64,000 nt of DNA from Candidatus Omnitrophota bacterium (GCA_903856085.1 CAIOAT010000016.1:8581-72580); one strand, 5' to 3'; positions 1,925 to 58,616 are shown, counted from the first letter of the stretch. Translations and numbers: made by a program. Notes: generated by a model from the letters alone, not told the origin.

Positions 1925-1949
1925 TTTAGCTTCTCCTTTTGACGCCTTC

Positions 1950-1994: not shown

Positions 1995-1996
1995 TC

Positions 1997-5497: not shown

Positions 5498-5537
5498 TTT
5501 TACACATATTTATCATCACCGTCATGGGGTATTTACA
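5498..5537 (+). promoter_or_regulatory. Pho-box-like array on the plus strand (four half-sites)
   Basis: Half-sites are TTTTACA (5498-5504), TTTATCA (5509-5515), ACCGTCA (5518-5524) and ATTTACA (5531-5537). The 11/9/13 spacing is identical to the porin array. It lies 60-100 nt upstream of small ORF 5599 and in the upstream region of the divergent TPR-ppk2 unit. Confidence 0.45.
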
Positions 5538-5598
5538 TAGAAATGCGAGACTTGGGTCAGAATAAAGAATAAAACAAGCTTGCGAAAGGGGATCAACC

Positions 5599-5832
5599 AT
5601 GATCAGCCAATTAGACTGCCTCGAAGACTTGATGGATTGGAATTCTTGCACCGAAATCAAATCGGCGCCTACCGCACGCGTGGGAAAGAGTTTTTTCCCT
5701 GTTTTTATGATCGAGTCCGCAACGACATCACCGGCCGGCAAAGAAATGGACTCGTGGCTTATCCGGTCCGGGCTTTCTCCCCAAGCAAGCCTTGCCTTCA
5801 GCCGGATCGGGATCTACACGGATTTTTCTTAG
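5599..5832 (+). CDS. Orphan small ORF (77 aa), hypothetical
   Basis: ATG is preceded by GAAAGGGGA (SD-like, 7-nt spacer) and sits downstream of the plus-strand Pho-box-like array. I recognise no family. It is the only plausible plus-strand gene in the first 26 kb. Confidence 0.3.
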   Translation: MISQLDCLEDLMDWNSCTEIKSAPTARVGKSFFPVFMIESATTSPAGKEMDSWLIRSGLSPQASLAFSRIGIYTDFS

Positions 5833-5901
5833 CCCTAATCCAAAAAGATCGCGAATCTTGCCTCTTATTTTGAACTTCACGGAACGTTCGGGGATCTGTG
5901 A

Positions 5902-9231: not shown

Positions 9232-9385
9232 AAATGATTCCTTTCCTGGACTCAAGATCTACCCAGAATCATTATCGACGATCAACATGATGGGAGTGTT
9301 TGGCGGAGGAAAATTCCGTGTAAAATCATTTTGAAACGACGTAATCAGCTCTGGGGAAACAGGTTAAAGAAACCCTGCCGAACGC

Positions 9386-11455: not shown

Positions 11456-11467
11456 AGTTTTGAAACT

Positions 11468-13030: not shown

Positions 13031-13038
13031 GCTGTTCC

Positions 13039-14031: not shown

Positions 14032-14059
14032 AGACTCTCCCCTTTCAAAATTGATTTCC

Positions 14060-14103
14060 ATTATAATGGCTCAGGGAAGTTTTTATGTAAAGCATTTGTA
14101 AAG
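14060..14103 (-). promoter_or_regulatory. Pho-box-like repeat plus consensus -10 for the ROK-ppx-ppk1 operon
   Basis: Top strand has TGTAAAG (14086-14092) and TGTAAAG (14097-14103), exactly 11 bp apart. On the gene strand this reads CTTTACA-AATG-CTTTACA. TATAAT (14065-14060) lies 20 nt downstream, and ATG 14031 follows about 29 nt later. Confidence 0.6.
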
Positions 14104-20200: not shown

Positions 20201-23200
20201 CCGGAGAAATATACGCTCTCGATACTTTTGAAGAATGCCCGTTCTCTGGAACGGAAGACGCTCCCTCCAAAGAAACAATTCGGAAATAGCCTTGGTGTTG
20301 GGGCACCACCACGAATGTTGCTTCATAAGGATTCTTGGTTTCCTTGCGTAATGTCCAGATCCCCTTTCTTTCCGTTTTAAGAAATTTCGCACCCTGCAGG
20401 TCTTTTCCTAAAAAAGTCACTGTAGAGGAGGGAACGCCCCGCTGCATTAAAAGCTGCGCTCCTTTCATGTTTTCGGTGATCATTTGTTTGCCCACCAATT
20501 TCTGAATCGCCAATTCATTGGTTTGAGCCAAGGCTGACGAAGCCATGAGAAAAGCCCCCAGCAAAAATCCTCCCATTATTTTTAACAAGAAATGGATTCC
20601 CAGCTTTCGGCGAACTTCTGAACGCTGTGGTGCAATTCCTAGCCCGAAGAAATTTGCCCCGGTGATAACATTCAAAGGTTCTACCCACGTTTCGGATGCG
20701 CGCAGATCTGTAAAACCCTTCGTAGTCCATACTTTTTCGGATACAACTTGAGCATTCAACCAATCTCTTAGTTCGTCCGGGATAGTTTTTGATCCCACCA
20801 GTCTCCACGAGAAAACCTTCCGGGAAAAACCTAAGACGATTTGGATATCAGCAATGGGTGGGGCGTTTTGATTCGTCTTCACGTGAAATAGGGTGCCATT
20901 TATGCCAAGCTTGTGCCCTCGTCTTAAAAATCCCTGCAATTCTGGAGACATCTCCAAAACAATTTTGCCAAGATCAACCCTGTAAACCAACCCCGCAACC
21001 TTTGTCTCTGGCCCAAAAGCTTCAATGTGCTTCGCCGAAAGAGAGGCTGCGCTCCGCATTTCGAATCTTGTCACACCCTTCTTGAAAGACCGATAAGCCT
21101 GCATCAAAAGGCCTGCGGCGATTGCTGACGCTTCCTCTTTTTCTTCAGCCCTTAGCTTTGATTCCCGCGTGTTCAATTCGATATATTCACGAATTCGAAC
21201 GTTAAGTCCAGATAGCGCAGAGGAGGTAAAATTCATCTCGAAAGATTCGATCGCTTTAGCGGCTAGCGCGTAAGGAACCAAGGTATCCGGCAGATCCTTG
21301 GCCTGTCCAAGATCGTTTCTAACCGATTCCAAATCGGCAAAAGTAACCCCGCCATTCCGTTCTTTTCCATAAATGAGTCCCCACGCAAGCGCCCAAGCCG
21401 CCATCGCCTGCTCAGCAGGGATTCGAATGGCCCCCTTAGCCGACGTCATAAGCTCGAGTGACACGGCGAGCATAGACGTCGGGATCATTGCATCCGCATC
21501 ATCCAACAACCCGCCATCGATCAAGCTCACGATCGCATGATGGGCAAGAGCACGCACGGTTCCGCAATCACTGAGATTAAGTTGCAAAAGCACTTCTGCA
21601 CGCTTCAAAGCTTCCCCAAGGATTTCCTTATTCATAACGGGATCAAGATAATTTGAACGCGCCTCCGAACGAACGACGATTTGCGCTTTCACCGATCCCG
21701 GTTCAGAACGGCCAGACGCTGCCTTTTCGCGAGAAAACCGATGGCGAGAGAGTTTCGAATCAACATTGGAACGCCGAAAGGCCTCTGAAATCAAAACACC
21801 CAGATGAATTTTTTTAATCATTTTCAAAGCCACCCAGGAAAAGGCAATATCCCCCGTAAGGATGACGAGCTCTGAAAGGTAGGGGCTTACAAGCTTGTTG
21901 ATAATCATCGCCATCCCCTCAACAGGAAGGAACCATAACAACAATTGACGGCGACTCTCCTTAAAAGATCCGTGGCTTTTGAAGAGTCGTAGAGATTCGA
22001 AGTTATTTTCAGGATAGATGTTTGTATAATATTTCCAGAGCATAAGTGGATAAAAAATATAAAAATTGATCAAAGCATCCCCCATGGTTTTAAGGACGAT
22101 CTCAGACCACACATCAAGCCATGGGGAAAGATTTAATTTCCCGATTAAGGCATAATAAACGGTAAAAAATAAAGCGAACAAGCTAGCTGGAGCTGCGGCT
22201 TTCCTGGAGTCTTTCCAGAATGTTTTCATGAACACTCCTCGAAAGCCATGGCGAAGATAATCCTGCATCCAGACACAATATGCCGCAATCATGCCAGCCC
22301 AGGCGATACTCACGCCAAGTGAAAGAACTAAAGAATGCCATGACGCGTTCTGAAGATGCGGTTTAAGGATAAACGCCAGCCCCAGAGTGGCGGCTGAAAA
22401 TCCAGCTGTCCCCATCGCGGCAGGTGTGATTTGTTTGAGATGAGCGAGTTTGGATCTCTGGTTCCTTATTTCGGACCGGCCGAGCAAGACTTGGGGCAAT
22501 CCCTTTACGTCCCGAGTAAGCACTTGCAGCTCTTTGGCTGCCAATGTGGCCGCCTTGCGAGAGAATAGGATTTGGATCTGATTACTGGGGATCTTTAAAG
22601 CGTCCACAATAAGCCGGTCCTCGGTAACGCCAGCCCCACGAGCCTTTTTCAGATAGCCATCAATCCTTGCATTCTCGGCCTCCGCAATCCGTATCGTCTC
22701 ATTTTCAGCCACAATCGTTTGAAGAAGACCTGCAATCTTCTCTTCGATTTTGTCATGAACTGTCAAGAGCTCGGCTTCCGCTACACGAGTCTCCAGAAGA
22801 GCTATTTCCCGATTGGCTCGCTCAGCGCCCCCGAAAGTCACCTTCCCGCCGAGACCTACGGCCTGCTGATCCTCCGTGCGTTGTTTTGCCTCCGGAACAA
22901 CTCTTGTATTGAACACATCCGGAACTTTTGTCCCATAGGAATCGAAATAGTTGAATCCCTTAAGACCGATCGAGTAACCGTTCTCTCTTGCAGCCAATCT
23001 CGCGGCCGTTGCGGCAGTCAAACGGGCCTCATAAGCCAACGCAAGTTCACGGTTTGCCGGAAGTTTGACGCCTTCTTTGGAGGTTGCTTTAAGACCAAGC
23101 GCTATTCGTTGATCGGTTGTGATCGTCCACCCTTCCGGAAATCGCACATAATTCAAGGCATTGGAAAAAGTCGCACATCCTAAGATGTTTTGGCCATAGA

Positions 23201-25985: not shown

Positions 25986-26096
25986 TTTTTGCCCTTTTCC
26001 AATGGTGGAAGACAACTCTTTAAGGTTTTATAAAAGTTTTTCCTTCTGATCTCACGGAAAGCTTAACTTCGTTGTGAAAACTCTGCATCACATCCC

Positions 26097-34351: not shown

Positions 34352-34642
34352 TCAGCATTTCTGCCAAAATTTTGGTATAAAAAACGGCGTCTTTTTTTTG
34401 TAATCGCAATAGGCATCCCCGAAGCGTTGCTTGAGCTCTTTTTCCTCGATAAGCTTGATCTCGAGAATGAGAAGGATCATCAGGATAACAGCTCCCTTTT
34501 CCCCGAGTCCTAAAATCCAGACTAGCACTGGCCATCCAGCGATAAAAAGTATCACGCCAAGCACCGTTGCCACCGTCCTGTAGCCCGCGGAGTATTCCTG
34601 GCCCACCCTCGCTACCAAATATCCGATTAATTGATCGAACAT
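34352..34642 (-). CDS. Short ICMT/PEMT-like membrane methyltransferase fragment (96 aa)
   Basis: The C-terminal block EEKELKQRFGDAYCDYKKKTPFFIP is typical of the isoprenylcysteine carboxyl methyltransferase family. Only about 2 TM helices are present, with no clear RHPxY block. It may be a truncated or minimal form. Confidence 0.4.
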   Translation of the reverse strand: MFDQLIGYLVARVGQEYSAGYRTVATVLGVILFIAGWPVLVWILGLGEKGAVILMILLILEIKLIEEKELKQRFGDAYCDYKKKTPFFIPKFWQKC

Positions 34643-34713
34643 AAATTCCTCCTCATTTCAAAAACCACCGGACCAGCGCCAATAATGACCGCTCTTTTTT
34701 TGCTCAGAGCGGC

Positions 34714-36279
34714 CTATCCCCCTCCGTCATCGACCTTGATATGCTGCTCCCGAACAAGCTGTCCCCGATTGTTAAAAGCCATGAGAACACCCCTCTTGGC
34801 CCCTGTCCGCTTTAGAAATTTCAGAGCGTCCAGCTTACTCTTCCAGAGAGCGATATTCCTATGGGCGTAAAAAACAATCTGAGGGAGGATCAACGCGCCC
34901 GGACGCTCCGGCTTGAGGAAGATCACCTCTCCTTTATCCGCCACCCGGGCGATCTCTTTGCCGACGGCCTCGAAGTTCCCCGCGACAATATCTTTATTGG
35001 CTTCTAAATAGCCGCCTACGGACAATACCGTCATGAAACAAAAGCAGAGAATCAATCCCCCCGTTCTTAAAACTTGAGAAAGGCCCGAACCCCATTTTTG
35101 AAAAAAATAACCATCGATCTTCGAATAGATCAGGCCTGTAAGAAGCGCTATCAAAAAGCCGGTTTTCAGAACCGAGAAATCATGGAGAGTCGTGAAATCC
35201 CATAAAACCAGGTGGTGCATAAGAACGGGCCAAAGACACAAGAAAAGCAGGATTCTTTCAAGCCTTCCGTTTCGGCTCTCCTCCACAAAACATTTTTTGA
35301 TGAAATAAATATATATTAGATTTATAAAGAACCCCCCATAACCCAGAATATAATAATTCGTGATGGCCTGCCATGCCGTCAGATCCCAGATGTTTTGTCC
35401 TGGATGAATTTTTTGAAAAACCCCAGATCTCTCAAGATATTTTTCAGACAATGTCCGCATCAAGCTCTGAACCCCGGCTATCTGGGAATAGTGCCAAAGG
35501 AGCAGCGCAAGCGCGACCAACGAAGAAACGCTCACGACTCCAAAAACAATCCTCATCGATCTTTTTCGGAAATTGAATAGGCAATAAATGAGCAGCGTTA
35601 AAGAAAAGAATGCCCCGAGCCACTCAGTAAAAATCATCAAAAAGACCGAAAGCCCAAGAAGTGCATAGTAAATGCCTTTGTGAGACGCGGTCATCAATCT
35701 CAAAAAGACATAGACCCCGGCGATAAAGAACACCTGGACAAACATTTCGCTGAAATAAACATTGGAGTGGTTCCATAATGCGACGGGTGAGAATAAATAG
35801 ACGGCAAGTCCCATCAAGGCCGGAATGTTCGAACGGCCCCGGCAATTTTTCCGGGTCAATGCGGAAACGATCAGGTAGACAAGCAGACAGCAGGAAAAAT
35901 GTACCGCCAATCCAAAGATCTGGAGGGCTGTGACATCGGGGTAAACGTGGAGGGCCTTAAAGATTAAATAGGGGACCATGTGGGCAAGCGGCCCGTAGCT
36001 CACATAATAATAATTCCCCTCCTGATCTTTGATCCGTCCTTGATTTTTAATGTTTTTATCATTTGGATTGTCATAGGTCATGATCGGTAAAAATTTATGG
36101 TTTAAAGCGCCGCCCTCATACCAGATCTGCTGAATGCGGAGAGTGTGTGCCGTCAAGTACTCATGCCCCTCTCCCAGGGGCCTGCTCATATAAGACAATC
36201 GGATGCCAGTACTTAAAGCGAACAATGCGACAATAATCAGCGCGCTCTTCAACTGATGGGATGCCAAGCTGCTACGCAA
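34714..36279 (-). CDS. Polytopic membrane protein, GT-C/ArnT(GT39)-like glycosyltransferase candidate
   Basis: 521 aa with about 11 hydrophobic helices and then a ~100-aa soluble C-terminal domain. The N-terminus is SALIIVALFALSTGIRLSYMSRPLGEGHEYLTAHTLR. It lies next to other glycan genes. Confidence 0.4.
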   Translation of the reverse strand: MRSSLASHQLKSALIIVALFALSTGIRLSYMSRPLGEGHEYLTAHTLRIQQIWYEGGALNHKFLPIMTYDNPNDKNIKNQGRIKDQEGNYYYVSYGPLAHMVPYLIFKALHVYPDVTALQIFGLAVHFSCCLLVYLIVSALTRKNCRGRSNIPALMGLAVYLFSPVALWNHSNVYFSEMFVQVFFIAGVYVFLRLMTASHKGIYYALLGLSVFLMIFTEWLGAFFSLTLLIYCLFNFRKRSMRIVFGVVSVSSLVALALLLWHYSQIAGVQSLMRTLSEKYLERSGVFQKIHPGQNIWDLTAWQAITNYYILGYGGFFINLIYIYFIKKCFVEESRNGRLERILLFLCLWPVLMHHLVLWDFTTLHDFSVLKTGFLIALLTGLIYSKIDGYFFQKWGSGLSQVLRTGGLILCFCFMTVLSVGGYLEANKDIVAGNFEAVGKEIARVADKGEVIFLKPERPGALILPQIVFYAHRNIALWKSKLDALKFLKRTGAKRGVLMAFNNRGQLVREQHIKVDDGGG

Positions 36280-36392
36280 CGCTCTTCCTCCCTTTTGTTA
36301 GACACCCAGGACTGCCTTGCAACCGATTTTGCGGGTTCGCAGTACTGCTGAAGTCTTTATTTTTATTCAGAGGATCGAGGAACATTTTTCTA

Positions 36393-36575
36393 TTATCTTT
36401 GTTTTCTCTTCCAATGTTTGCAGCCTTTTTCCACCAAGGTGGGAGGAATGCCCTTATTCGGACCTTTCCCGTGAGCCTCGAACCAAACGCAAACACCCAG
36501 AAAAGAATCCCCGAGGTCCCTGCGAAAGTCACAATCCCAGCAAGCGGTCATCACTGCCTTTTTTGAATCAGTCAT
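36393..36575 (-). CDS. Small Cys-rich protein (60 aa), hypothetical
   Basis: A strong SD (AAGGAG) lies 7 nt upstream of ATG 36575. The pattern C-W-D-C ... G-V-C ... C-K-H-W suggests a 4-Cys metal site. Confidence 0.45.
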   Translation of the reverse strand: MTDSKKAVMTACWDCDFRRDLGDSFLGVCVWFEAHGKGPNKGIPPTLVEKGCKHWKRKQR

Positions 36576-36663
36576 TTTGCAACTCCTTATTTTCTACTGT
36601 CCGGCCGTTGACCGCTCCTGCGTTCGATGAGAAGCGCAAAAGCCGCGCCCCTCTAACAACAAT

Positions 36664-37884
36664 TTACCCCTTCATTTCCAAAGCCTTATACTTATGCCAA
36701 ATAGCTTTTTCTTTGCGCTCGGAAAGAACGGTTTTCTCAAAACCCAAGTCAGGAAACCATTCCTTGCCGAAAGCTGAATAATACTCAAAGAGCCTCTGCT
36801 TCACCCACTCATCACTTCGATGTGTTATTCCCAGCTTAACTTCCAGATCACGATATAAAAAATAAGCTGCGAGCATATTGGCGTATTCATTCCAATGGCC
36901 TTCATGTTGGAATCTCAAACGGGACGGGGGAAAAAGGTGGGAACCGCTAAAGAGTTTGTAAAGATTAAGAGAGTCGATCCCCTCAGGGATTAAAGACTCG
37001 TCCTTCCCTTCGGTATGAAAAGGAAGAAGAACAACAGAAAATCGAGCGTTCTGAGCAGCCGCCCGCTTCGACCATGCCTGAAGTATCGTTTGATAGACTT
37101 TGATGGTCTGATCAACTTCAGGGGAAGGTTTTCCTGATAAATGATCGTTTTGAAAACGCTTGACCGCTGACGAATGGCGCTCTTTGTGAAAATGTTTTTT
37201 GGGCTGCAGATTAAGCCAAGAAACGAATTTTGTTTTGGCGTCTAAAAATAAGTAGGTTATGTAAAACCTAGAAACGACTCTGTTCCAAAAGGAAGAACCT
37301 TTCTTTTTTCGGGGAAAAATTAAGTGTCCCTCTCTATCCACGGAAATCAGCTTGTTTTCATAAATATTCATAAGATCATTGTCGCAATAAACATAAAACA
37401 CAAACTGCAGACCCCTGGCCACGGGCCGCTCAAGAAAGGACAAATAGGCATCATCCGTTCCATAACCATTCATCCCAAAATTAATTACTTCAAACTTGTC
37501 TTTGTTACTGTTAAGCAAATAATCGAGAACATTCACAAAGCCGTATTCGATGCTCAAGCCCGTATTTTCCACGAAAGAATCCCCGAAGAAACCGATGCGG
37601 AGCCGGCGAGCACTGGACGCCCGATCAACATCCCAACTCTGTCGCAAACCGAGATTATTATAAACCGCTAAATGCTGCTTCCCTGTATCCGGATGCTTTC
37701 GAAGAGAGCGGGTATTGGGAACCCGCTTAAGAAAATCCTCACGCGTTAATCTAGACTCAGCAGCTTCCTGGTATTTTGGAAGAAAGATTCTAAGACCTAT
37801 CTCTGCGATCATCAGCGAAATGAATACCGCGCCCAATACCAAAAGACCCTTTTGGATAAATTCTTTTGTATTTTGTTTCAGCAT
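36664..37884 (-). CDS. SGNH/GDSL-family hydrolase or acyltransferase with N-terminal membrane anchor
   Basis: N-terminal TM helix LLVLGAVFISLMIAEIGL, GDS block IGFFGDSFVENTG and a late block HEGHWNEYANML. It is adjacent to an MBOAT remnant, an AlgI/AlgJ-like pairing. Confidence 0.6.
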   Translation of the reverse strand: MLKQNTKEFIQKGLLVLGAVFISLMIAEIGLRIFLPKYQEAAESRLTREDFLKRVPNTRSLRKHPDTGKQHLAVYNNLGLRQSWDVDRASSARRLRIGFFGDSFVENTGLSIEYGFVNVLDYLLNSNKDKFEVINFGMNGYGTDDAYLSFLERPVARGLQFVFYVYCDNDLMNIYENKLISVDREGHLIFPRKKKGSSFWNRVVSRFYITYLFLDAKTKFVSWLNLQPKKHFHKERHSSAVKRFQNDHLSGKPSPEVDQTIKVYQTILQAWSKRAAAQNARFSVVLLPFHTEGKDESLIPEGIDSLNLYKLFSGSHLFPPSRLRFQHEGHWNEYANMLAAYFLYRDLEVKLGITHRSDEWVKQRLFEYYSAFGKEWFPDLGFEKTVLSERKEKAIWHKYKALEMKG

Positions 37885-37992
37885 GATTTCAACACATCCT
37901 TAGGCGCTTGGAAAATCCTAGGTTCGCTAGAACAAACGAAAGAAAATGGACGCGATAACAACAACGGTCGGCCCCGACAACGGAAAGTGACA

Positions 37993-38630
37993 TTATTTAA
38001 TCAGCCCCGCATCATAAATCGCTTCTGCCAAAAGCGCTGAATGGATTTCCCTTCCCCGCCTATTGTTGTGCATCTTATCACTGTAGAGCAACCCGTCATT
38101 TAATTCTTCAAACTGATTCATGTCCAGAACCCTCACCCCTTTCAGCCGAACATAGTTTGTAAATTCATTATAGGTAGGCATTCCTTTTCAGGCTCGATTT
38201 CGCCCCGATAGACATCCACCACACAACTTATCGCTTGAAAGGTATGAAAAGACATCCCGATAGGAAGAATAATGGATAGATGAAGGCTGTCGACACTGAC
38301 ATGCAACGGGCTGAGAAGCGCGTTTAAGCTGCCTAGGAAAAAACCAAAGTATTTGAAAAATCCAAGAATAACCAAGTTGACGCTTATGCTTAGAATAAGA
38401 AGTGCTTTTCTATATTTTGGATCCTTCGACCGAGTGATGGCCTTGGCCGAGAAAAAATCTATAGAGGTCGAAGAAAGGATGAGAAAAAGAAATCTCCAAT
38501 TCCAGCTACCATAAAAAAACAGGCTAGCCACCAGAAGGATGCGATTCTGTGTGTTTTTTGGAGAAATCCAATAGAGGGATGTTACGACGAACAAAAAAGC
38601 GATGTATTGCCAAGAGTTAAAAAGGATCAT
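37993..38630 (-). pseudogene. Deletion remnant: MBOAT (AlgI/DltB-like) N-terminal 150 aa joined out of frame to the C-terminal ~60 aa of an SGNH-type protein
   Basis: ORF 38142-38630 has the MBOAT start (MILFNSWQYIAFLFVV...FYGSWNWRF...VVDVYRGEIEPEK) but stops at 162 aa, against about 470 expected. Overlapping ORF 37993-38181 carries a DxxH-type SGNH end (YSDKMHNNRRGREIHSALLAEAI). Confidence 0.55.
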
Positions 38631-38640
38631 TTTTTGGATT

Positions 38641-41580
38641 TTATCTTACGCAAATGGATCGAAAAAGTTCCTTATATTTACCCCCGATAGCACTGATACC
38701 ATACTCGCCAAGGATTTTATCGCGATCGCAAAGACCGACCTGCTGGCGCACCTTGACATCTCTGAGCGCGAGGAGGGCCTCGACCCATTCATCAACGGTC
38801 CTGGCCAAATAGGCATTCCTCCGGTGATCGATCAGTTTTTCATACGAAGGGATAGGAGAACATACCATCGGAATCCCAAGCGACTTGAACAGGGTGAACC
38901 GATTGGTCGATTTCCCGAGATGCTGTGAAGAGTCCATATTAAACGGAACGACCGCTATATCGCTGGCAAGAATTTCTTTCCACACAGCCTTCAGGTCCCA
39001 TTTGACGGCCTTATCGTTTTTTGTGATCGCGGTCAGACGATAATTTTTCAACGCGGGAGTCCGCAGGGCTTTCTCAACAAGCGTAAGGTTCGTTAAACTA
39101 TCGGGGTTCCCAACACAAATAATGCGAATATCCGTCTTTTCGACGTTCACGTCATAATGCTTACACAGACTGGGAGGTGTTTCGATGGCATCATCAATCA
39201 CGCTAACACGTAAAGGATCTATGCCGCAGATAATCAGCTCTTCCGCCAAACGTTCAGAAACGACCACCAGGTGATCATAGGTTTCCGACATCCTTAATTC
39301 ATCCTTACTCCTCGGGAGATCGGCCAATAACAAGACCGTCTTGATGCCCTTTGCCCTGCACTTTTTAGAAAGACTGGGAGCGCCCCCCCAATAGACTTTC
39401 TGAAAAATTAGAATATCCAACCCGGAATGAAGGATAATCCAACGGAAGAACCTTGAGAGCAACAACCGGGGGGAATAGACCAAAGGCTTATAAAGAATGA
39501 CCGAATGCCACCCTTCGCCTTTCAAATAGGAATGGATGTTGATGCCCTGAATGCGACTGCTGGCATTGTTCTCATCGCCAAAAAGTACCCACCCAACGGA
39601 CGGTCGTTTAGCGGAAAAAAATCGCTTTAAAAAAAAAGCTCCTAGATTCCCTATTTTAAAAGTTCCTGATGGAAATCGAAATTTCTTTTTGGCCTCTTTT
39701 TTCATCAGGGTATTTCCAAGGGTTTTGGAACGAAAATAAGAGGGGCGATTCACGTCCCGATGGTTAACCCACTTGAAGTAAGGGTTGATCCTATAGTTTC
39801 CGGGAATCACTGCACATTTCACACGGTTCCTATAAAGAACGGGGGTTAAACTGACCTGGTCCCGCCAGCTATTTTCTTGAAACTCTCGCCACCAATCCTC
39901 CATGGCCTTGATAACAACGCTTTCGTGATGCTTCCGCAAAAGAATAGCGCCGGCAAACAAACCATTTCCGGCAGGATACCGCTCCGCTTGATACTTTTCG
40001 ATCTGTTTCTGAATGATCGCGACATCATCGAGCTCACTTTGAATGCATTTATCCGCTTCTTGGTAAATGCAATTCCTTTCCGGATGCTGAAAGCAAGCCA
40101 TGTCATCATTCGCCAGGTTTTCAGTTAAAAACCTGGATATGCTTCCAATGGGATGATAGGTGGCATCTACCCAAATGCTTTGCTCGTGGTGCGGGAAGAG
40201 CTTATGCGGGTTCATTTTGTAATAACGGGAGGTCAGAATCGGATTATCGTCGATCAGGCCGACTTTTCTGATCTGCCACGCCGGAGAAAAAGGAATGTCC
40301 TTATTTGTAAAACACACATAATCCACATCCGCCTCAAGCGCCAGCGCGGAGGGAGCTTTGAGTGTATCGGTCCCCCCGAAGATTGCCGTATAAACCACGA
40401 TCTTCCTTTGCCGCTTCGAGTTTCTCTGCCACGCATACCACAAGGAGGCCAGGAGATCACTGAGAGGATTCAGGCTAGCCTTCCTCGGGAGACGGCGCCA
40501 TAAACGCCCCTCCTTCCATCCGCTATTCCTCCAGTGCCTTATTGCGGCCTTCTCATCCTTGACCCCTTTTTCCAAAAGATCCGGATACTTGGCGAGATAG
40601 TATTCCCAATCAAAATCAGCTGGCGTTTTCTGTATCACCCAGCCCACTTTGTAGCTCCGACATTCTTTTTTCCCATAAATGACCCAATGACGCTTGGCCG
40701 CCGCTTCGGTCACGATGCCGGCACGCGAAAGATCCGGATGCTTGGCAAGATAATATTTCCAATCAAAATCCAAAGGGACATCCGAAAAAGACACCTGCCC
40801 CACCGACCTGCTCGGCACATTCCTCCGACAGGACTTCACGGCATCCTTCACTCGTGGAACATACTTCAGCATTTCCGTATCTTCTACCGCATTCGAGGGA
40901 AGATTCCTCATGGACCAAACCTCTTTCAGTTTTTTCAACCGGATGTCCGCCATTTTCCCCATCGAATCGCCCCGGTCTACACGCCCCATAAAAGTTTGAT
41001 AAGAGCGGGCAAAATAATGATTCACATGAGCTTTTTCAGAACTCACCCACTGCGTCTCTCCGGAAACACGGAATTGATGAGGAGACGGGATATCGATAAC
41101 TTTGGCAGGCCTGACAATCGCCTTCGTTTGGTTGAACCATTTTTCCGTGACCGCATCGTGATCAGCTCGCCTCGTAAGCTTTTCTAATATGAACTCGGGA
41201 TCTTGGATATGCCCATTATTCCCAAAAACGCGCCAATTCAGCATAATTTGCGAGTACGGCTCATAGTTTTTCAAGAAAGCCTTAACATCGTCATGCTCTT
41301 TTAAAACGATAAATTCATCGCCATCCACGAAGGCCATCCATTCGCACTGTCTGAATTCCTGGCAAAGGTGACGATACGCCTTAATTTGCAACGGCTGTCC
41401 CTTGCTATCAGGCCAATTGATGACGGTCACGTAATCCAAATGGCCGAAGATCTTGCGCAAAGGTAAAGCCGGATCGTTGTCGCACAAAAAGAAATGATCG
41501 AACCCGATCATCCTGTGATAAGCCAACCACTCCCTGACAAAGCGATCCTCTTCCTTCAACATCGCCGCTAAAGCAATCAT
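38641..41580 (-). CDS. Multi-domain glycosyltransferase (GT92/GT2-like + two PDL-repeats + DUF616-like + C-terminal GT-B-like), 979 aa
   Basis: N-terminus: FVREWLAYHRMIGFDHFFLCDND...FVDGDEF. Middle: KIVVYTAIFGGTDTLK...CFTNKD...LTSRYYKMNPHKLFP...WVDA (DUF616-like). C-terminus: HLVVVSERLAEELIICGIDPLRVSVIDD. There is a 4-nt start/stop overlap with the sulfotransferase gene. Confidence 0.65.
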   Translation of the reverse strand: MIALAAMLKEEDRFVREWLAYHRMIGFDHFFLCDNDPALPLRKIFGHLDYVTVINWPDSKGQPLQIKAYRHLCQEFRQCEWMAFVDGDEFIVLKEHDDVKAFLKNYEPYSQIMLNWRVFGNNGHIQDPEFILEKLTRRADHDAVTEKWFNQTKAIVRPAKVIDIPSPHQFRVSGETQWVSSEKAHVNHYFARSYQTFMGRVDRGDSMGKMADIRLKKLKEVWSMRNLPSNAVEDTEMLKYVPRVKDAVKSCRRNVPSRSVGQVSFSDVPLDFDWKYYLAKHPDLSRAGIVTEAAAKRHWVIYGKKECRSYKVGWVIQKTPADFDWEYYLAKYPDLLEKGVKDEKAAIRHWRNSGWKEGRLWRRLPRKASLNPLSDLLASLWYAWQRNSKRQRKIVVYTAIFGGTDTLKAPSALALEADVDYVCFTNKDIPFSPAWQIRKVGLIDDNPILTSRYYKMNPHKLFPHHEQSIWVDATYHPIGSISRFLTENLANDDMACFQHPERNCIYQEADKCIQSELDDVAIIQKQIEKYQAERYPAGNGLFAGAILLRKHHESVVIKAMEDWWREFQENSWRDQVSLTPVLYRNRVKCAVIPGNYRINPYFKWVNHRDVNRPSYFRSKTLGNTLMKKEAKKKFRFPSGTFKIGNLGAFFLKRFFSAKRPSVGWVLFGDENNASSRIQGINIHSYLKGEGWHSVILYKPLVYSPRLLLSRFFRWIILHSGLDILIFQKVYWGGAPSLSKKCRAKGIKTVLLLADLPRSKDELRMSETYDHLVVVSERLAEELIICGIDPLRVSVIDDAIETPPSLCKHYDVNVEKTDIRIICVGNPDSLTNLTLVEKALRTPALKNYRLTAITKNDKAVKWDLKAVWKEILASDIAVVPFNMDSSQHLGKSTNRFTLFKSLGIPMVCSPIPSYEKLIDHRRNAYLARTVDEWVEALLALRDVKVRQQVGLCDRDKILGEYGISAIGGKYKELFRSICVR
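40498..40770 (-). repeat. Tandem ~40-aa protein repeat inside the glycosyltransferase
   Basis: DFDWKYYLAKHPDLSRAGIVTEAAAKRHWVIYGKKECRSY (aa 271-310) and DFDWEYYLAKYPDLLEKGVKDEKAAIRHWRNSGWKEGRLW (aa 322-361). Confidence 0.8.
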
Positions 41581-42218
41581 GAGCCATATTCCTTCGTGGT
41601 TTTCCGAAGGATCGTATCCGGTTTTATATATTTTGTATAAAGCGGTATGCCCGACTTTGGGAGTCCTAAAAAAGATAGAATGCGAACCTGGATATCCTGA
41701 TCCAGGATGGAGATGCTTCTCCCCGGATGCACAAAATCCTCATAATGCAACTCCAGATGAGGGACCCCTTTCAACACTTCTTTGTATTTCACCTGCTCTT
41801 GTTCGATAGAGCGCGCCAGATCCTCTAGGCCCGACAGATCGGGAATTCCTCCTTGAGGCAAAGTTTCGCCTTCATAATAATGAGCCCGATACTGTTTTCT
41901 AAGAACCTTTTTGTCCGCTTGTACCTGCAATCGACTTTGGGCAACGGCCTTCGGGTCTCTCAATAAATGGATGATCTTCTGTTGCAAGAGAGTCCCCCCC
42001 AAGCTTTCCATGGTAAGAACTTGGTTGTACATCAGTATCCCCATATTTAATTTTCCGGGGATGTTCTCCGTGATTGTTCCCGTTCTTTCATACCGGAGGA
42101 ACGCCTCTCCTCGGACATGGATCTGGGGGTGCTGCTCGAAAAAGGATGCCAACAAATGCGTCCCGCTTCTTTGCGTGCTAAAGATCAAAACCTGCGGAAT
42201 AATATCCTTCATTTCCAT
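41577..42218 (-). CDS. Sulfotransferase-family protein
   Basis: 213 aa. A PAPS-binding 5'-PSB-like loop (IFSTQRSGTHLLASFF) and a later block IHLLRDPKAVAQS. The stop overlaps the downstream GT start (ATGA). Confidence 0.65.
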   Translation of the reverse strand: MEMKDIIPQVLIFSTQRSGTHLLASFFEQHPQIHVRGEAFLRYERTGTITENIPGKLNMGILMYNQVLTMESLGGTLLQQKIIHLLRDPKAVAQSRLQVQADKKVLRKQYRAHYYEGETLPQGGIPDLSGLEDLARSIEQEQVKYKEVLKGVPHLELHYEDFVHPGRSISILDQDIQVRILSFLGLPKSGIPLYTKYIKPDTILRKTTKEYGS

Positions 42219-42317
42219 AACCCCTCACTCTCACTCCCTAAAAAACATTAACTCTCTTAGAACATTAAAAAATTTCCGCGATACGTTTTGAGATACGGGT
42301 TCTCTTAATATCCTTGC

Positions 42318-43067
42318 CTAGATTATGAACTGCTGCTCCGTATTTAAGAATGAATCGAAACAGCGCGGGATCGCCGAAGTAAATTTTACAAGCTCTTCCG
42401 TCCAAGGATGACGAAATTGTAATCGGGATGCATGCAAAAGAAGACGTTCGGCCTTCACGATGGGCCGCATCTCCTCCAGCCATCCCTCGTGGATGTAACG
42501 TTCGAAGATCCGCGGATCAATGTAGATCTTGTCGCCCACGATGGGATGTCCCAAAAAGGAGAGGTGTGCGCGAATCTGATGCGTGCGGCCTGTCCGCGGC
42601 ATCACCTTTAAAAGCGAATACTCTCCTGCGTTGCTTAAAACCTGATAATCCGTTTGGGCCTTCTCTCCGTGGGGATCTGATGTGCGGATATTGTGACCAC
42701 TTTGAATGTCGAGCCCAAGCGATTCCGAGATCGTCCCCTCTTGAGCCTTAGGCGCTCCAAAGACAATAGCGTGATATTCTTTCGTCACCTGTCTGTTTTC
42801 AAAAAGGATCCCGAGCTTCCCGGCCGCCAGGGCCGATTTCGCAACCAGCACGATCCCGCTTGTCTCCGAATCAAGCCGGTTCACGATCCGGAGTCCCTCG
42901 GAACCCGAACCTACGTCCCGGATCAAAAGACTCAGCAGGTTTTTTTCCTTGAAGCGCCCCACGGGATGGACCGGAAGCGGGGCCGGCTTATCCACCACGA
43001 GAAAAAACTCATCCTCGTAAAGGATCTTGTAGTCTGTCTCCACATAAAGATCTTCTTCGGCGCGCAT
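42318..43067 (-). CDS. RluA-family pseudouridine synthase
   Basis: Blocks VDKPAPLPVHP, the catalytic NRLDSETSGIVLVAK and GRTHQIRAHL. ATG 43067 is preferred over GTG 43082. Confidence 0.85.
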   Translation of the reverse strand: MRAEEDLYVETDYKILYEDEFFLVVDKPAPLPVHPVGRFKEKNLLSLLIRDVGSGSEGLRIVNRLDSETSGIVLVAKSALAAGKLGILFENRQVTKEYHAIVFGAPKAQEGTISESLGLDIQSGHNIRTSDPHGEKAQTDYQVLSNAGEYSLLKVMPRTGRTHQIRAHLSFLGHPIVGDKIYIDPRIFERYIHEGWLEEMRPIVKAERLLLHASRLQFRHPWTEELVKFTSAIPRCFDSFLNTEQQFII

Positions 43068-43138: not shown

Positions 43139-45829
43139 TTATTTCAATAACTGTCGCAGGACGTAGTGCAGGATACCGCTATGGCGGTAGTATTCGATTT
43201 CGACGGGAGTGTCAATGCGGCAAACCGCTTCAAAGACCTTGGTTTTCCCCGCGCCCAAGGCCTTGACTGTGAGGATCTTGCCAGGCTTCAACCCCTTGGC
43301 GACCCCTTCGATCGCGTAGACCTCTTCACCGGTCAGTTTGAACGAAGCGGCGTTCTGACCTTGGAAGAATTGCAGCGGCAAAATACCCATCCCGATCAAA
43401 TTGCTGCGATGGATCCTTTCATAGCTTTCCGCGATCACGGCACGGACCCCTAGAAGCGCGGGACCTTTGGCTGCCCAGTCGCGCGAAGACCCGGAACCGT
43501 ATTCTTTCCCAGCAAGGATCACAAGCGGCCGGTTCTCTTCGCCATACTTCATAGCGGCGTCAAAGATCGGCATCGCCACGCTCTTTCCCTTTTCTGAAAA
43601 ATACTTCGTCATCCCACCTTCCACGCCCGGAACCAGCAAGTTTTTCAGGCGAATGTTCGCGAACGTGCCGCGCATCATCACTTCGTGATTACCGCGCCGC
43701 GCTCCGTAAGAATTAAAATCCTTGGGTTCGATCCCCTGTTCAATCAGATATTTCCCGGCAGGACTCGCCGGCGCGATGGAGCCCGCAGGAGAAATATGGT
43801 CGGTCGTGATCGAATCCCCGAGCACGGCCAACACGCGGGCGTTCTTGATATCCTTAAGGTCGGAGGGGAAAGCCGGCATTCTCTTGAAATAGGGCGGAGA
43901 TTTTACATAAAGAGACTTTTTATCCCAAACGAAGGTGTCGCCCCCTGGAGCGTTCAACGCGCGCCATGACTCGTTCCCCTCAAAAACATTTTTATAGCGA
44001 TTTCTGAACATCGACGGGTCCACACTCTTCAAAGCTTCCCGGATCTCCGCGGAGCTTGGCCAGATATCCCGCAGATAAACGGGTTTACCGTTTTTTCCGA
44101 GTCCAAGAGGATCCTTTTCAAGGTCGATCATGACGGTTCCCGCGATCGCGTAGGCAACGACCAGCGGCGGAGACGCGAGATAATTCGCGCGAACCTGCGA
44201 ATGTACCCGCCCTTCGAAATTCCGGTTCCCGGAAAGAACAGACGCCACGACCAGGTCTTTTTCCTTGATCGCTTTGGACACGGGTTCCGGCAATGGCCCC
44301 GAGTTCCCAATACATGTCATGCATCCATACCCCACAAGATTGAATTTCAACACTTCAAGGCAGGACAGAAGTCCGCTTGCCGCAAGATAATCCGTCACGA
44401 CCTGAGAGCCGGGCGCAAGACTCGTTTTTACCCAGGGCTTCACGGTCAGACCTTTTTGAAGCGCTTTTTTTGCGAGGATCCCGGCCGCCAGCATCACGGA
44501 AGGGCTGGAGGTGTTAGTGCAACTTGTGATAGACGCGATCACGACTGCCCCTTGCTGTAAGTCGCATTTTTCGCCCGCGATCTCGATTACGGCTTTTTTC
44601 GCAAGATCGGCCTTGTTTTTCACCGTCTCCGCGAGGGCCTTCTTGAAGGAAAGCTTTACTTCCTTGAGCGCGACTCGGTCTTGAGGCCGCTTCGGGCCGG
44701 CAAGGCTCGGAACTACGCTGGCAAGATCGAGCTCCAGAGTTTCGGAATAAACGATTTTTTCCTCCCCGCCTTCGCGGAAAAGGCCCTGCTCTTTCAGATA
44801 AGTTTCTGCGAGCTTGATCTGCTCCTCACTCCTTCCGGTCAGCCTGAGAAAATATAGCGTTTCCTGGTCGACCGGGAAAAATCCGGCCGTAGCGCCGTAC
44901 TCGGGAGCCATATTCGCGACCACCGCTCGGTCCGCGAGCGATAATTCGCTGACACCGTGTCCAAAAAATTCCACGAATTTTCCGACCACACCCTTTTTAC
45001 GAAGCATTTGTGTTGCAGTCAGCACCAAGTCTGTGGCCGTCACACCTTCGGATAATTTTCCGGAGAACTTAAAACCCACCACCTCAGGGATCAACATGGA
45101 GATCGGCTGACCAAGCATCGCGGCCTCCGCCTCAATCCCTCCAACCCCCCAGCCCAGCACCCCGAGACCGTTGATCATGGTGGTGTGTGAGTCCGTTCCG
45201 ACCAGCGTATCCGGATAAAGGAAGGTCTTCCCACCTTCTTTTCTGCTGAAGATCACGGGGGAAAGGTATTCAAGGTTCACTTGGTGGATGATCCCCGTAG
45301 CGGGAGGGACGACGCGGAAATTATGGAAAGCCTGCTGGCCCCATTTGAGGAATTGATAGCGTTCCTGATTGCGCTCGAATTCTTTCGCGATATTTTTCGC
45401 GAAGGCCTCGGAGGTCCCCGAAAAATCCGTTTGCACCGAGTGGTCGATGACGAGATCCACGGGCTGAAGCGGATTGATCTTCTTGGGATCGCCGCCCATC
45501 TTGACCATGGCTTCACGCATGGCCGCAAGATCCACAACCGCCGGAACGCCTGTAAAATCTTGCAACAAAACACGCGCCGGCGTGAAAGCGATCTCGTGCT
45601 CGCCTTTCCGCGTCGGGTCCCAGGTCGCAAGCCTCTCGATGTCTTTCCGCGTGACGTTCTTGCCGTCTTCATTGCGAAGCAGGTTCTCAAGAAGCACCCG
45701 TATGGAATAGGGAAGCTTCAGGACCTTGGCAATGCCGCATTCCTGAAGCGCGCGCAGCCGGTAGATCGTGTAGTCCTTGCCCGCAATCTTGAGCGTGACC
45801 TTACTTCCAAAGCTGTTCAAAAGACTCAT
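43139..45829 (-). CDS. acnA: Aconitate hydratase A
   Basis: 896 aa with blocks typical of AcnA/IRP-type aconitases: [65 protein letters not shown] and [16 protein letters not shown]. Confidence 0.95.
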
Positions 45830-46236
45830 CAGCGAATCCCTTTTTCATTCAGAAACGCGCTATATTCCTTGTCGACAGTTAAGATGTGATGACTGAGCCA
45901 GCTCATCAAGAAATGCACTATATCGATAGAAAGCGTTGTCTTGTCTTTTTCAAGATCTCGTTGAAAAATCGCGACCTTGGACCTGAAGACTTCGTGTTCT
46001 TTTTTGTGCTGTTCGTAGCCGGGGAAATAATACTCACTCAGAAGCAGTTCTTCCGCGTCAAAGTGCCCCGTGGCATAGCGAGCAAGCTCCCACACATCCA
46101 CACCGAGGGCCTCTCGATCGTCTTTTTTTCCCATTCTGTCAAAAATATTCCCAAAAATCTCGAAAAGCCTTTTATGCTGTTCGTCGATCATCTTGATATT
46201 CACGCTGTATTTTTCTTCCCAGATGATATGCGGCAC
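45829..46236 (-). CDS. Hemerythrin-like (bacteriohemerythrin) protein 1
   Basis: From GTG 46236, with a G-rich SD 5 nt upstream, the protein reads [28 protein letters not shown]...HFDAEELLL...HKKEHEVF...[13 protein letters not shown]. The stop overlaps the acnA ATG (TGATG). The track start at 46326 would overlap paralog 2. Confidence 0.8.
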
Positions 46237-46253
46237 GACACCCCCCCGTCTTA

Positions 46254-46661
46254 TTAGAAAACCCCGCGTGCGTTCAGGAAAGGGGCGTATTTTTTGTCCG
46301 CTTTCATCACATGCTCTGCGATCCAATGTGTCATGAACTGGACGACGTCACCGGTAAGCGTCTCCCTGCCTTCCTGAAAATTCTTCTGAAACCCCAGGAT
46401 CTTGTTACGAAAGACCTCGTGCTCCTTATGATGTTCTCCGAACTCTGGATAGTGATGCTTGATCATCAGCTGCTCTTCGGCATCGAAGTGATAGCCTGCA
46501 TACGCGACTAATTCCCGCAAGATCTCGGAAAGCGCGCTTTGCGGACGCCCCGCTTCGATGGCTTCAAAGAGCATGTCGAGCATAGCCGTGAACTTTTGAT
46601 GTTGCTGGTCAATCTCAGCAATATGAACGCTGTAGGTCTCGTCCCAAATAATGTCTAACAC
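46254..46661 (-). CDS. Hemerythrin-like (bacteriohemerythrin) protein 2
   Basis: GTG start with SD GGAGG 5 nt upstream. The sequence is MLDIIWDETYSVHIAEIDQQHQKF...HFDAEEQLM...HHKEHEVF...WIAEHVMKADKKY, a tandem paralog of 45829-46236. Confidence 0.85.
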   Translation of the reverse strand: MLDIIWDETYSVHIAEIDQQHQKFTAMLDMLFEAIEAGRPQSALSEILRELVAYAGYHFDAEEQLMIKHHYPEFGEHHKEHEVFRNKILGFQKNFQEGRETLTGDVVQFMTHWIAEHVMKADKKYAPFLNARGVF

Positions 46662-47959: not shown

Positions 47960-48026
47960 ATAGGTATTGGGACTAGAATGCTTCGTTCCAAAAAGACCAG
48001 CCTCATCAAAAGAGTCCATATTTTAT

Positions 48027-48827
48027 ATGAAGAACACTAAAATTAAAAGAACGCTCTTGGATGCCCTTGCGACGGCCGGAAAGATCATCCGTTCGAATTT
48101 CGGCAAGGAACAGACGATCACAAAAAAAGGCCGGTTCAACCTTGTAACCGAGATCGATAAAGCCTCGGAAAAAGCCGTGGTCGGGCTTATTTTGAAACGT
48201 TTTCCGGATCATTCGATCCTGGCCGAGGAATCCCCTGCCATACTGGGCTCCGAATACCGCTGGATCATCGATCCAATCGACGGCACCACGAACTTCGCGC
48301 ACGGCTTCCCGATCGTTTCAGTCTCGATCGGGCTGGAGAGGGATGGCCGACTTGAAATGGGCGGCGTTTTCGATCCCTTTCGTAAGGAGCTTTTTTTCGC
48401 TGAGCGCAGCCAAGGTGCAACCCTGAACGGCAAGCGCATCCATGTCTCCAAAGCAAAAACCCTCGAGGACTCGCTCCTTGCGACCGGTTTCCCCTACGAT
48501 CGCAACATAAAGCCGGATGATTATCTCGGAATGCTCCGCGTCTTTCTGCCCCGGATCCAGGGCATACGCCGCGGCGGATCTGCAGCGATCGATCTTTGCT
48601 ACGTAGCCTGCGGCCGTTTTGACGGTTATTATGAAATGAAACTCGCGCCGTGGGACAAGGCGGCAGGCATGATGATCGTCGAGGAAGCAGGCGGAAGGCT
48701 TACGGATTTTTCAGGAGCTTCTTTAACTCTTGAGGGATTGCAGAATCTCGCCACCAATGGTTTGATTCATGCCGAAATGCTGGCGGCCCTTGAACCGTTC
48801 AAACATCTGGGGCGATCTTTTTCTTAG
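48027..48827 (+). CDS. suhB: Inositol monophosphatase family protein (SuhB-like)
   Basis: Blocks LAEESP, WIIDPIDGTTNFAHG and GSAAIDLCYVACGRFDGYYE. ATG 48027 is preferred over the TTG at 47967. Confidence 0.8.
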   Translation: MKNTKIKRTLLDALATAGKIIRSNFGKEQTITKKGRFNLVTEIDKASEKAVVGLILKRFPDHSILAEESPAILGSEYRWIIDPIDGTTNFAHGFPIVSVSIGLERDGRLEMGGVFDPFRKELFFAERSQGATLNGKRIHVSKAKTLEDSLLATGFPYDRNIKPDDYLGMLRVFLPRIQGIRRGGSAAIDLCYVACGRFDGYYEMKLAPWDKAAGMMIVEEAGGRLTDFSGASLTLEGLQNLATNGLIHAEMLAALEPFKHLGRSFS

Positions 48828-57508: not shown

Positions 57509-57922
57509 TCAGTGTCCCGCGTGATCGAGCGCCAGATTCACGAGCCGGTCAACATGCTTGATCTTCGGATGCTCACGCGGCACGTGAAAATAAGTGACGC
57601 GCTTGAATTTCTTCTCGAGATCTTTGACCTGGATAAAGAACGGCTTGAGATGCTCGGCCTTGAGCCTATAAATGCCGGAGAGTTGGCGCGCAACAAGCTC
57701 GCTGTCTAAAAAATAATCCGCTTCGGAGATGCCAAGCTCTGCGGCGAGCGTCAGCCCTCGGACCACGGCCGTATATTCCGCTACGTTGTTGGTGGTCTCG
57801 CCGATCGTTTCGCCATGATCGGCCAGTTTATTGTCCTTCTCGTCACAAACCAACACACCGATCGCCGCAGGCCCCGGGTTTCCGCGAGCTCCGCCGTCCG
57901 AATAGATTTTGGCTTTTTTCAT
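57509..57922 (-). CDS. rnhA: Ribonuclease HI
   Basis: From ATG 57922: MKKAKIYSDGGARGNPGPAAIG...TNNVAEYTAVVRGL...DSELVARQ. The track start at 58117 would overlap cysE. Confidence 0.8.
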   Translation of the reverse strand: MKKAKIYSDGGARGNPGPAAIGVLVCDEKDNKLADHGETIGETTNNVAEYTAVVRGLTLAAELGISEADYFLDSELVARQLSGIYRLKAEHLKPFFIQVKDLEKKFKRVTYFHVPREHPKIKHVDRLVNLALDHAGH

Positions 57923-57941
57923 AAAACCAGCTAGGCGAACG

Positions 57942-58616
57942 CTAGTCCTTTTTAAGGTTCTGACCCTTGTGATGAGCTTCGAGGGATTCGACTTCTTTTT
58001 GAAGTTCGCGAACGCGATTTTTGAGCTCTCGGACCGGATCCGGAAGATCCCCATGATCGAGATCGACCTCTTCGATTTTTTTTCCGTCAATGCGAACGAT
58101 CTCGGCCGGTACGCCAACCACGGTGCAATGATCCGGCACAGAGTGGATCACGACCGATCCGCCGCCGATCTTCACGTGATCCCCGATCTTGATATTTCCG
58201 AGCACCTTCGCCCCCACGCCGACCACCACATTATGTCCGAGTGTCGGATGCCGCTTCCCTCGTTCTTTCCCCGTTCCGCCGAGCGTCACACCCTGATAGA
58301 TCGTTACATTCTCCCCGATCTCAGTCGTTTCCCCGATTACCACGCCCATGCCGTGGTCAATGAAAAATCCGGGCGCGATCTGCGCGCCGGGATGGATCTC
58401 GACGCCCGTCAGAAATCGCGCGATCTGGGAAATAAGTCGCGGGACAAAAGGAATACGCCATGTGTAAAGAATGTGCGCGAAACGATAGAAAAGTACGGCG
58501 TGAAGTCCCGAGTAGAGAAAAATGACCTCGAGCGCGCCAAACGGCGTGCGCGCAGCCGGATCACGCTCAAAACAGGCCTTGAAGTCCCGATAAATGGAAT
58601 AGAAGGGGTTTCTCAT
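57942..58616 (-). CDS. cysE: Serine O-acetyltransferase with C-terminal coiled-coil tail
   Basis: ERDPAARTPFGALEVIFLYSGLHAV, the hexapeptide region GVEIHPGAQIAPGFFIDHGMGVVIGETTEIGENVTIYQGVTLGG, and the tail RELKNRVRELQKEVESLE. Confidence 0.9.
   Translation of the reverse strand: MRNPFYSIYRDFKACFERDPAARTPFGALEVIFLYSGLHAVLFYRFAHILYTWRIPFVPRLISQIARFLTGVEIHPGAQIAPGFFIDHGMGVVIGETTEIGENVTIYQGVTLGGTGKERGKRHPTLGHNVVVGVGAKVLGNIKIGDHVKIGGGSVVIHSVPDHCTVVGVPAEIVRIDGKKIEEVDLDHGDLPDPVRELKNRVRELQKEVESLEAHHKGQNLKKD

Follow-up and report, generated by a model that had tools for sequence, protein, structure and literature searches.

We analysed a 64,000-nucleotide stretch of a Candidatus Omnitrophota genome (GCA_903856085.1, CAIOAT010000016.1:8581-72580; hereafter the window, with positions counted from its first base). 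On its minus strand, a gene for a small sulfotransferase of the type that uses 3'-phosphoadenosine-5'-phosphosulfate (PAPS) runs directly into a gene for a 979-aa, multi-domain glycosyltransferase (GT). The flanking housekeeping genes fall in clusters named Candidatus Omnitrophota in exact-sequence look-ups, and the locus recurs on contigs of boreal-lake metagenomes, with an identical copy of the 979-aa protein on 15 lake-metagenome contigs. The pair and its parts are laid out as follows, with residues numbered along the 979-aa protein.

41577..42218, minus strand: 213-aa PAPS-type sulfotransferase (Pfam Sulfotransfer_3/Sulfotransfer_1, PAPS-binding motifs)
38641..41580, minus strand: 979-aa multi-domain glycosyltransferase (open reading frame whose ATG overlaps the sulfotransferase stop)
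40891..41580, minus strand: GT92 / Glyco_tranf_2_4 GT-A domain (residues 1-230)
40480..40785, minus strand: two tandem 51-residue repeats, FDW.YYLAK.PDL...A..HW...G..E.R (residues 266-316 and 317-367, from pairwise alignment)
39751..40413, minus strand: TOD1/MUCI70 (GT116-like, formerly DUF616) GT-A-type domain (residues 390-610, PF04765)
38644..39633, minus strand: C-terminal GT-B (Glycos_transf_1 / Glyco_trans_1_2-like) domain (residues 650-979)

The 213-aa open reading frame (ORF) scores 33.6 bits against Pfam Sulfotransfer_3 (cutoff 27, E 6.4e-8) and 29.2 bits against Sulfotransfer_1 (cutoff 22, E 7.7e-7). Its family comprises 11 clusters in a word-indexed search, with members of about 200-230 aa, and two motifs, QRSGTH (residues 16-21) and KIIHLxR..A.S (residues 81-95), are invariant in an alignment of 11 family members. 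The best PDB match is the sulfotransferase domain 4gox (E 0.008), and the two motifs align to its 5'-phosphosulfate-binding (5'-PSB) and 3'-phosphate-binding (3'-PB) regions. An earlier note on this DNA had proposed a sulfotransferase with an RSGTH PAPS-loop that overlaps the start of the 979-aa ORF; the Pfam scores and the conservation of both PAPS-binding motifs bear out the first part, and the overlap is real, with both ORFs lying where that note had placed them. The sulfotransferase stop and the start of the 979-aa ORF share the sequence ATGA (a 4-nt overlap), and a Shine-Dalgarno-like AAGGA stands ~10 nt upstream of the start. As read from these signals, the two genes are translationally coupled. 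Neither product has a predicted transmembrane (TM) segment, and both are soluble, cytoplasmic proteins.

The earlier note had also divided the 979-aa protein into four parts (GT92, YYLAK-PDL repeats, a DUF616-like domain and a GT-B-like C-terminus), an anatomy that our searches confirmed, in the case of the GT-B part by way of its homologues. The GT92 region (residues 2-206) matches PF01697 over residues 15-201 (E 6e-18, 65.8 bits vs a cutoff of 23) and also matches Glyco_tranf_2_4 (PF13704, E 1.2e-16), with the DxD motif VDGDEF at residues 85-90. A stand-alone 266-aa GT92 from a Mucilaginibacter metagenome-assembled genome (MAG) shares 41% identity with it (E 3e-49), and the D-x-D-E-F is kept. 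The two 51-residue repeats that follow are ~50% identical overall as protein. Their 43-nt DNA cores (40575-40617 and 40728-40770, 153 nt apart) are 91% identical at the DNA level, which suggests a recent duplication or gene conversion. The repeats match no Pfam model; the same 51-residue unit is present in up to nine matched stretches of other large glycan-synthesis proteins.

For the TOD1 domain, a PF04765 (TOD1_MUCI70) match well above threshold (E 7e-15, 55.6 bits vs a cutoff of 21.4) is joined by a GT-A-like fold: in an AlphaFold2 (AF2) model of the full 979-aa protein, built on a 24-sequence alignment, residues 390-610 are the only part with a predicted local distance difference test (pLDDT) score >90. 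A whole-model Foldseek search with this mostly low-confidence model returned GT4 enzymes as the top matches, with GT6 GT-A transferases also among the matches. As the output carries no query coordinates, matches were attributed to domains indirectly: to judge from target size and model confidence, the GT6 matches most plausibly reflect the TOD1 domain, and the GT4 matches would belong to the low-confidence C-terminal region. A PDB sequence search with the 979-aa protein gave nothing significant.

The C-terminal domain (residues 650-979) is assigned to GT-B by homology to profile-passing proteins, together with a beta-alpha alternation, in line with a double Rossmann fold, in the low-confidence model of this region. 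One homologue, P0109, passes the Pfam threshold for Glycos_transf_1. A 595-aa TOD1+GT-B protein from Planctomycetales (L006), which is 32% identical over residues 393-979 (E 9e-90), also passes Glycos_transf_1. A third, P0122, is 42% identical to the C-terminal domain and lies above the gathering cut-offs for Glyco_transf_4 and Glyco_trans_1_2, with 0 stretches passing on their own; its strong Glycos_transf_1 match falls outside the part aligned to the 979-aa protein.

To see how unusual the fusion is, we relied on an exhaustive HMMER search of 1.84 billion representatives, which found 18,669 relatives of any part, and inspected the 150 best for architecture. None of these 150 covers all four parts (GT92, repeats, TOD1 and GT-B). 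Partial fusions do occur among them: GT92 with TOD1 (6), repeat with TOD1 (6), GT92 with repeat (3) and TOD1 with GT-B (2); 108 of the best library matches cover the TOD1 domain alone. As no four-part protein was seen in this set and pairwise fusions were, the 979-aa protein puts common building blocks together in a new way. Very large multi-GT fusion proteins are common. Like the large multi-domain bacterial GTs exemplified by library protein P0124 (2,411 aa, with three GT92 and three GT2 domains), the 979-aa protein strings several GT catalytic domains in series with the 51-residue repeat as a spacer, but it differs from the other multi-GT proteins among the 150 best in its order of GT92, repeats, TOD1 and GT-B.

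We then considered the company that the sulfotransferase keeps elsewhere. Homologues 34-68% identical to the window protein were inspected at five independent loci, from Bacteroidota, an Opitutaceae MAG and unassigned metagenome contigs. In the Mucilaginibacter MAG, the homologue (47% identical) comes directly after the 266-aa GT92. On one unassigned contig it lies near Wzy_C, Acyl_transf_3 and GT92, and on another between a GT61 and a TOD1 protein. The order in the Opitutaceae MAG is adenosine-5'-phosphosulfate (APS) kinase, a second sulfotransferase of the Sulfotransfer_3 type, the homologue, TOD1, GT92 and a gene for an ATP-binding cassette (ABC)-type ATPase, and in a Bacteroidales MAG it is APS kinase, the homologue, GT11 and GT92. 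The neighbouring GT92 and TOD1 genes are true homologues of the corresponding parts of the 979-aa protein (tblastn, E 1e-33 to 1e-46). This recurrent linkage of the sulfotransferase with GT92 and TOD1, with an APS kinase present in 2/5 loci, is the strongest evidence for a PAPS-dependent glycan sulfotransferase that works with these GTs, and it supports a link between sulfation and glycosyl transfer that reaches beyond simple adjacency in the window.

The same loci bear on another explanation, in which the sulfotransferase acts on a lipid, a small metabolite or a glycolipid head group, and its position beside the GT reflects co-transfer rather than a shared pathway. Sulfotransferase specificity is unreadable from sequence, neither the family search nor literature searches found a characterised member of this small subfamily, and its closest structure, matched at just E 0.008, is the sulfotransferase domain of a polyketide/olefin synthase. 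This is nevertheless an explanation that we consider unlikely, given that all five independent contexts, from several lineages, are glycan loci in which a member of the family has GT92 and/or TOD1 homologues for neighbours, and that the sulfotransferase in the window is translationally coupled to a GT. Action on a glycan is the better account of these associations. A wider proposal, which we put forward tentatively and would not yet favour, is that small glycan sulfotransferases, the 213-aa protein included, make up a cross-phylum family not described before and operate in a fixed module together with GT92 and TOD1/GT116-like transferases, in some cases also with an APS kinase of their own, that builds a conserved sulfated oligosaccharide motif; the module would have been captured horizontally here and compacted to a coupled pair with three GTs fused.

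Comparison with related genomes delimits the segment in which the pair lies. The comparison set consists of four related Omnitrophota genomes whose acnA is ~84% identical to that in the window. Their gene order is icd, hemerythrin (none in L018), acnA, rluA, a 57-aa gene and PEMT, and in 4/4 the rluA, 57-aa and PEMT genes are adjacent with the same tight junction. Citrate synthase comes next in 3/4 (in one of these after further small genes), and the fourth has no citrate synthase at the position after PEMT. In the window, blastn synteny shows rluA homology ending at ~42336-42342 and homology to the 57-aa gene at 36388-36556; therefore the 5,779 bases between are extra. This extra segment carries four genes, for the sulfotransferase, the 979-aa GT, a 162-aa ORF and a 406-aa ORF, and a second, separate insertion lies beyond the 57-aa gene. 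The features of this region outside the pair are listed below.

36557..42335, no strand: extra segment vs the four relatives (blastn synteny break, lower GC)
38142..38630, minus strand: 162-aa stump of an MBOAT (AlgI/PatA-type) O-acyltransferase (tblastn to plasmid-borne annotated MBOAT genes)
36664..37884, minus strand: 406-aa protein with an N-terminal TM anchor (TM segment 8-36), weakly SGNH/GDSL-like
34645-36387: second, separate insertion vs the relatives, holding the 521-aa membrane protein
34714..36279, minus strand: 521-aa polytopic membrane protein (~8 hydrophobic segments by hydropathy)

The base composition of the extra segment sets it apart. Its guanine-cytosine (GC) content is 0.456, vs 0.506 in the rest of the window, so that the AT-richer stretch which the earlier note had made out by eye exists and matches the synteny break to within tens of bases. 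In windows of the same size taken outside it, mean GC is 0.504 (standard deviation (sd) 0.011, minimum 0.482); the segment is below every one of them, ~4 sd under the mean. At third codon positions (GC3), its genes have values of 0.45-0.55 vs 0.60-0.65 in flanking housekeeping genes, and the closest homologues of the parts of its genes belong to other phyla. The segment thus has the two marks of a horizontally acquired island, namely absence from relatives at a conserved junction and deviant composition. Most likely, a 5.8-kb cassette was gained horizontally by one Omnitrophota lineage, between rluA and the conserved 57-aa gene. As to the direction of the event, we infer gain and not loss, gain being the simpler reading.

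The converse would be that the ancestor of this Omnitrophota group already had the 5.8 kb and that the four relatives lost it, with no horizontal acquisition. Such a history would fit the lack of mobility hallmarks, as we found no tRNA, no integrase-like Pfam match and no convincing flanking direct repeats (only short ones at chance level), and the comparison extends to just four relatives, each with ~84% identity in acnA and none with a position on a tree. We give it a low probability, in view of the same tight rluA / 57-aa gene / PEMT junction in 4/4 relatives, the shift in GC and GC3 and the closest homologues from other phyla.

Some further observations concern the surroundings of the island. 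An island-free relative (L027/L028) comes from the same lake sample (JGI 3300009502) as the island-bearing genome; citrate synthase is absent at this position in it, and two extra small ORFs lie between acnA and rluA. Upstream of acnA, the window has a tandem pair of hemerythrin genes (45829-46661, minus strand), where L014, L016 and L027 have one and L018 has none. Scans of 36-43.2 kb for promoters gave results no better than shuffles, and those for terminators were just slightly above shuffles, for which reason no operon boundaries are drawn. PADLOC found no defence-system match among five island-region ORFs, and an apparent mention of 'DUF616' in an antiphage paper is in fact DUF6161.

The two remaining island genes may be related to glycan acylation. 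The earlier note had placed acylation genes near the pair, and ORFs resembling MBOAT and, weakly, SGNH proteins are indeed present, but the MBOAT is a decayed, 162-aa stump. Against a 478-aa Paludibaculum MBOAT it covers residues 1-149 (47.7% identity, E 1.3e-31), and residues 150-478 are nowhere in the window in any frame, so that the C-terminal catalytic region of a full-length MBOAT is missing. The same stump is on 21 contigs, which speaks against an error of assembly, and what is left is probably the remnant of a pseudogene. The 406-aa protein matches Lipase_GDSL_2 below threshold (E 0.0047), shares 28% identity with a protein annotated as SGNH/GDSL (E 3e-5) and is a possible partner for the MBOAT. 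Pairs of MBOAT and SGNH proteins carry out O-acetylation in AlgI/AlgJ-X and PatA/PatB. Like these, the island has an MBOAT-homologous ORF followed by a membrane-anchored, weakly SGNH-like protein; unlike these, its MBOAT is without the C-terminal two thirds, including the part with the catalytic histidine of the family, and the acylation module is therefore probably inactive.

The 521-aa protein of the second insertion is absent from the four relatives. It has no Pfam, NCBIfam or PDB match, and its AF2 single-sequence model is unusable (pLDDT 44), so that the GT-C-like label which the earlier note gave to a nearby membrane protein is at best tentative. Its sole annotated relative is a 519-aa hypothetical protein on Cereibacter azotoformans plasmid pORIO1 (L026, 4974-6533; 24% identical, E 7e-6), and the pORIO1 cluster that holds this relative ends in a GtrA-family gene, which faintly suggests that the membrane protein has a role related to glycans. 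PDB sequence searches with the 162-aa and 406-aa proteins, as with the 521-aa protein, gave nothing significant. Next to the second insertion, a 96-aa PEMT-family ORF (34352-34642, minus strand) has an internal deletion vs the 177-182-aa genes in the four relatives: its residues 1-52 match one end of the full-length gene and its residues 27-92 the other.

Bringing these lines together, we consider it reasonably probable that the locus is an accessory glycan-decoration cassette, probably acquired, whose working parts are the coupled PAPS-dependent sulfotransferase and the three-GT fusion. Both PAPS and nucleotide sugars are found in the cytoplasm, and these two intact cytoplasmic enzymes would do the work. 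The fusion would supply three GT catalytic domains (a GT92 GT-A, a TOD1/MUCI70 GT116-like GT-A and a GT-B), with the two repeat units acting as a spacer between the first and the second. The three domains may add up to three sugars successively to an acceptor, probably a lipid-linked surface glycan, that other parts of the genome would provide, after which the sulfotransferase would esterify one newly added residue. We would expect the product to be a short side chain or cap bearing sulfate, and not an entire polymer. In this scheme we infer the carbohydrate substrate, the sugars, the linkage, the reaction order, the surface location and the availability of PAPS.

Several observations weigh against this interpretation. 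With respect to the fusion, the AF2 model is poor outside the TOD1 domain, and because it is confident for that domain only, the GT92 and GT-B folds rest on sequence evidence. Residues 650-979 alone fail the Pfam GT-B thresholds, with collinear matches at E 0.003-0.015, and by eye, in the sequence and its alignment to L006, K-S-x-N-R...F-K stands where EX7E would be expected, resembling the Glyco_trans_1_2 type. As it lies below Pfam thresholds and has no obvious EX7E, the GT-B domain may be non-catalytic. With respect to supply, there is no APS kinase, ATP sulfurylase or clear CysQ within the island or the 64-kb window; an inositol-phosphatase-family gene at 47967-48827 was considered as CysQ and rejected as a means of PAP removal linked to the island, as IMPase is its best-scoring family and the relatives without the island have the gene too. 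Nor is there a priming transferase, flippase, polymerase (Wzx/Wzy) or ABC exporter among the island or flanking genes. The island is thus not a self-contained surface polysaccharide locus of either the Wzx/Wzy or the ABC type, and with no priming enzyme, flippase, polymerase or exporter of its own it is read as a decoration cassette, not a complete polysaccharide pathway. Lastly, the truncated MBOAT and the internally deleted PEMT show local decay. Between two strain variants, the GT gene has 9 synonymous and 10 nonsynonymous changes, a ratio of nonsynonymous to synonymous rates (dN/dS) of ~0.3, vs 17 synonymous and 1 nonsynonymous in acnA (dN/dS 0.02). The GT counts, at 19 in total, are too small for a decision, but compatible with relaxed constraint.

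Some of these points would fit a cassette that is the decaying leftover of a larger polysaccharide locus, in which the sulfotransferase and GT ORFs are still open but yield no product, as would follow, for instance, from loss of the acceptor pathway, of the PAPS supply or of partner genes. An MBOAT cut to the first 149 of ~478 residues, a neighbouring PEMT with an internal deletion, the lack of export, priming or PAPS genes nearby and the higher share of nonsynonymous changes in the GT than in acnA are the points in favour of such a remnant. The pair itself is less readily explained in this way: the 2,940-nt and 642-nt ORFs are uninterrupted, with catalytic motifs and the 4-nt overlap kept; both ORFs are intact, and identical or nearly so, on many contigs from several samples; and a dN/dS of ~0.3, albeit from small counts, is still under neutrality. 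We therefore regard decay of the pair as improbable and retain a functional decoration cassette as the preferred reading.

Sulfotransferases encoded within bacterial polysaccharide clusters have been described for the synechan xss cluster of Synechocystis (PMC8205485), for the sulfated capsules of Vibrio sp. KMM 8419 and Cobetia marina (PMC11641403, PMC11766843) and for the sulfated exopolymers of Pontiella (PMC7356697). As in those clusters, the PAPS-type sulfotransferase gene here adjoins glycosyltransferases, and a sulfotransferase encoded next to GTs implies sulfation during cytoplasmic assembly of a surface glycan. A further likeness, an APS kinase within the cluster, holds for the two homologous loci of Opitutaceae and Bacteroidales and not for the window. 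The present locus differs from them in being a two-enzyme cassette without Wzx/Wzy, ABC exporter, priming transferase or PAPS genes, known from sequence alone, and in its host, an uncultured member of the Omnitrophota.

The two GT-A domains also have better-known relatives outside bacteria. The characterised members of CAZy GT92 are eukaryotic beta-1,4-galactosyltransferases, such as plant GALS1 and C. elegans GALT-1. The 979-aa protein resembles them in its above-threshold profile match and its DxD(E)F motif, but the bacterial domain is fused to other GT domains; our literature searches found no description of a bacterial GT92 paired with a sulfotransferase. The founder of the TOD1/MUCI70 family is the plant rhamnogalacturonan I (RG-I) galacturonosyltransferase MUCI70/RGGAT1, which defines GT116 (cited in bioRxiv 10.64898/2026.09.18.752628). 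Here the likeness consists of an above-threshold profile match and a confidently modelled TOD1 domain; unlike plant MUCI70, the domain is an internal part of a bacterial fusion, and the bacterial members are uncharacterised. Literature searches on Omnitrophota with sulfotransferase or PAPS returned nothing relevant. What is new in this locus is the host phylum, the order of the fusion and a small sulfotransferase subfamily that travels with GT92 and TOD1 across phyla and was not found in the searched literature. In other respects it would seem a routine accessory surface-glycan island, sound but fairly ordinary.

Elsewhere in the window, a giant ORF of 3,911 aa (14280-26015, minus strand) has as its only Pfam match a NUDIX domain near residues 3461-3597. 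A phosphate/polyphosphate block (24-14061, minus strand) encodes a Pst-type permease and binding protein, a porin, PPK2, PPK1, Ppx/GppA with an HD domain and a ROK-family kinase. In the ORF list, a 202-aa RNase H / RVT_3-like ORF (57509-58117, minus strand) overlaps a same-strand hexapeptide-transferase ORF, and these gene calls are provisional.

Chemical descriptions of sulfated bacterial glycans come from just a few groups, and catalogues of their sulfotransferases are poor. With the cassette and its homologous loci, a compact pair of one sulfotransferase and one fused triple GT can be put to the test as a route to a sulfated oligosaccharide; they also point to a recurring partnership of sulfotransferase, GT92 and TOD1 in bacteria. 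The Omnitrophota are uncultured and are thought to interact closely with other cells, so that attachment or phage evasion could be affected by a sulfated surface decoration that is specific to a strain. If the proposal of a fixed cross-phylum module is true, an ultra-small, possibly host-associated bacterium would carry a sulfated surface epitope.

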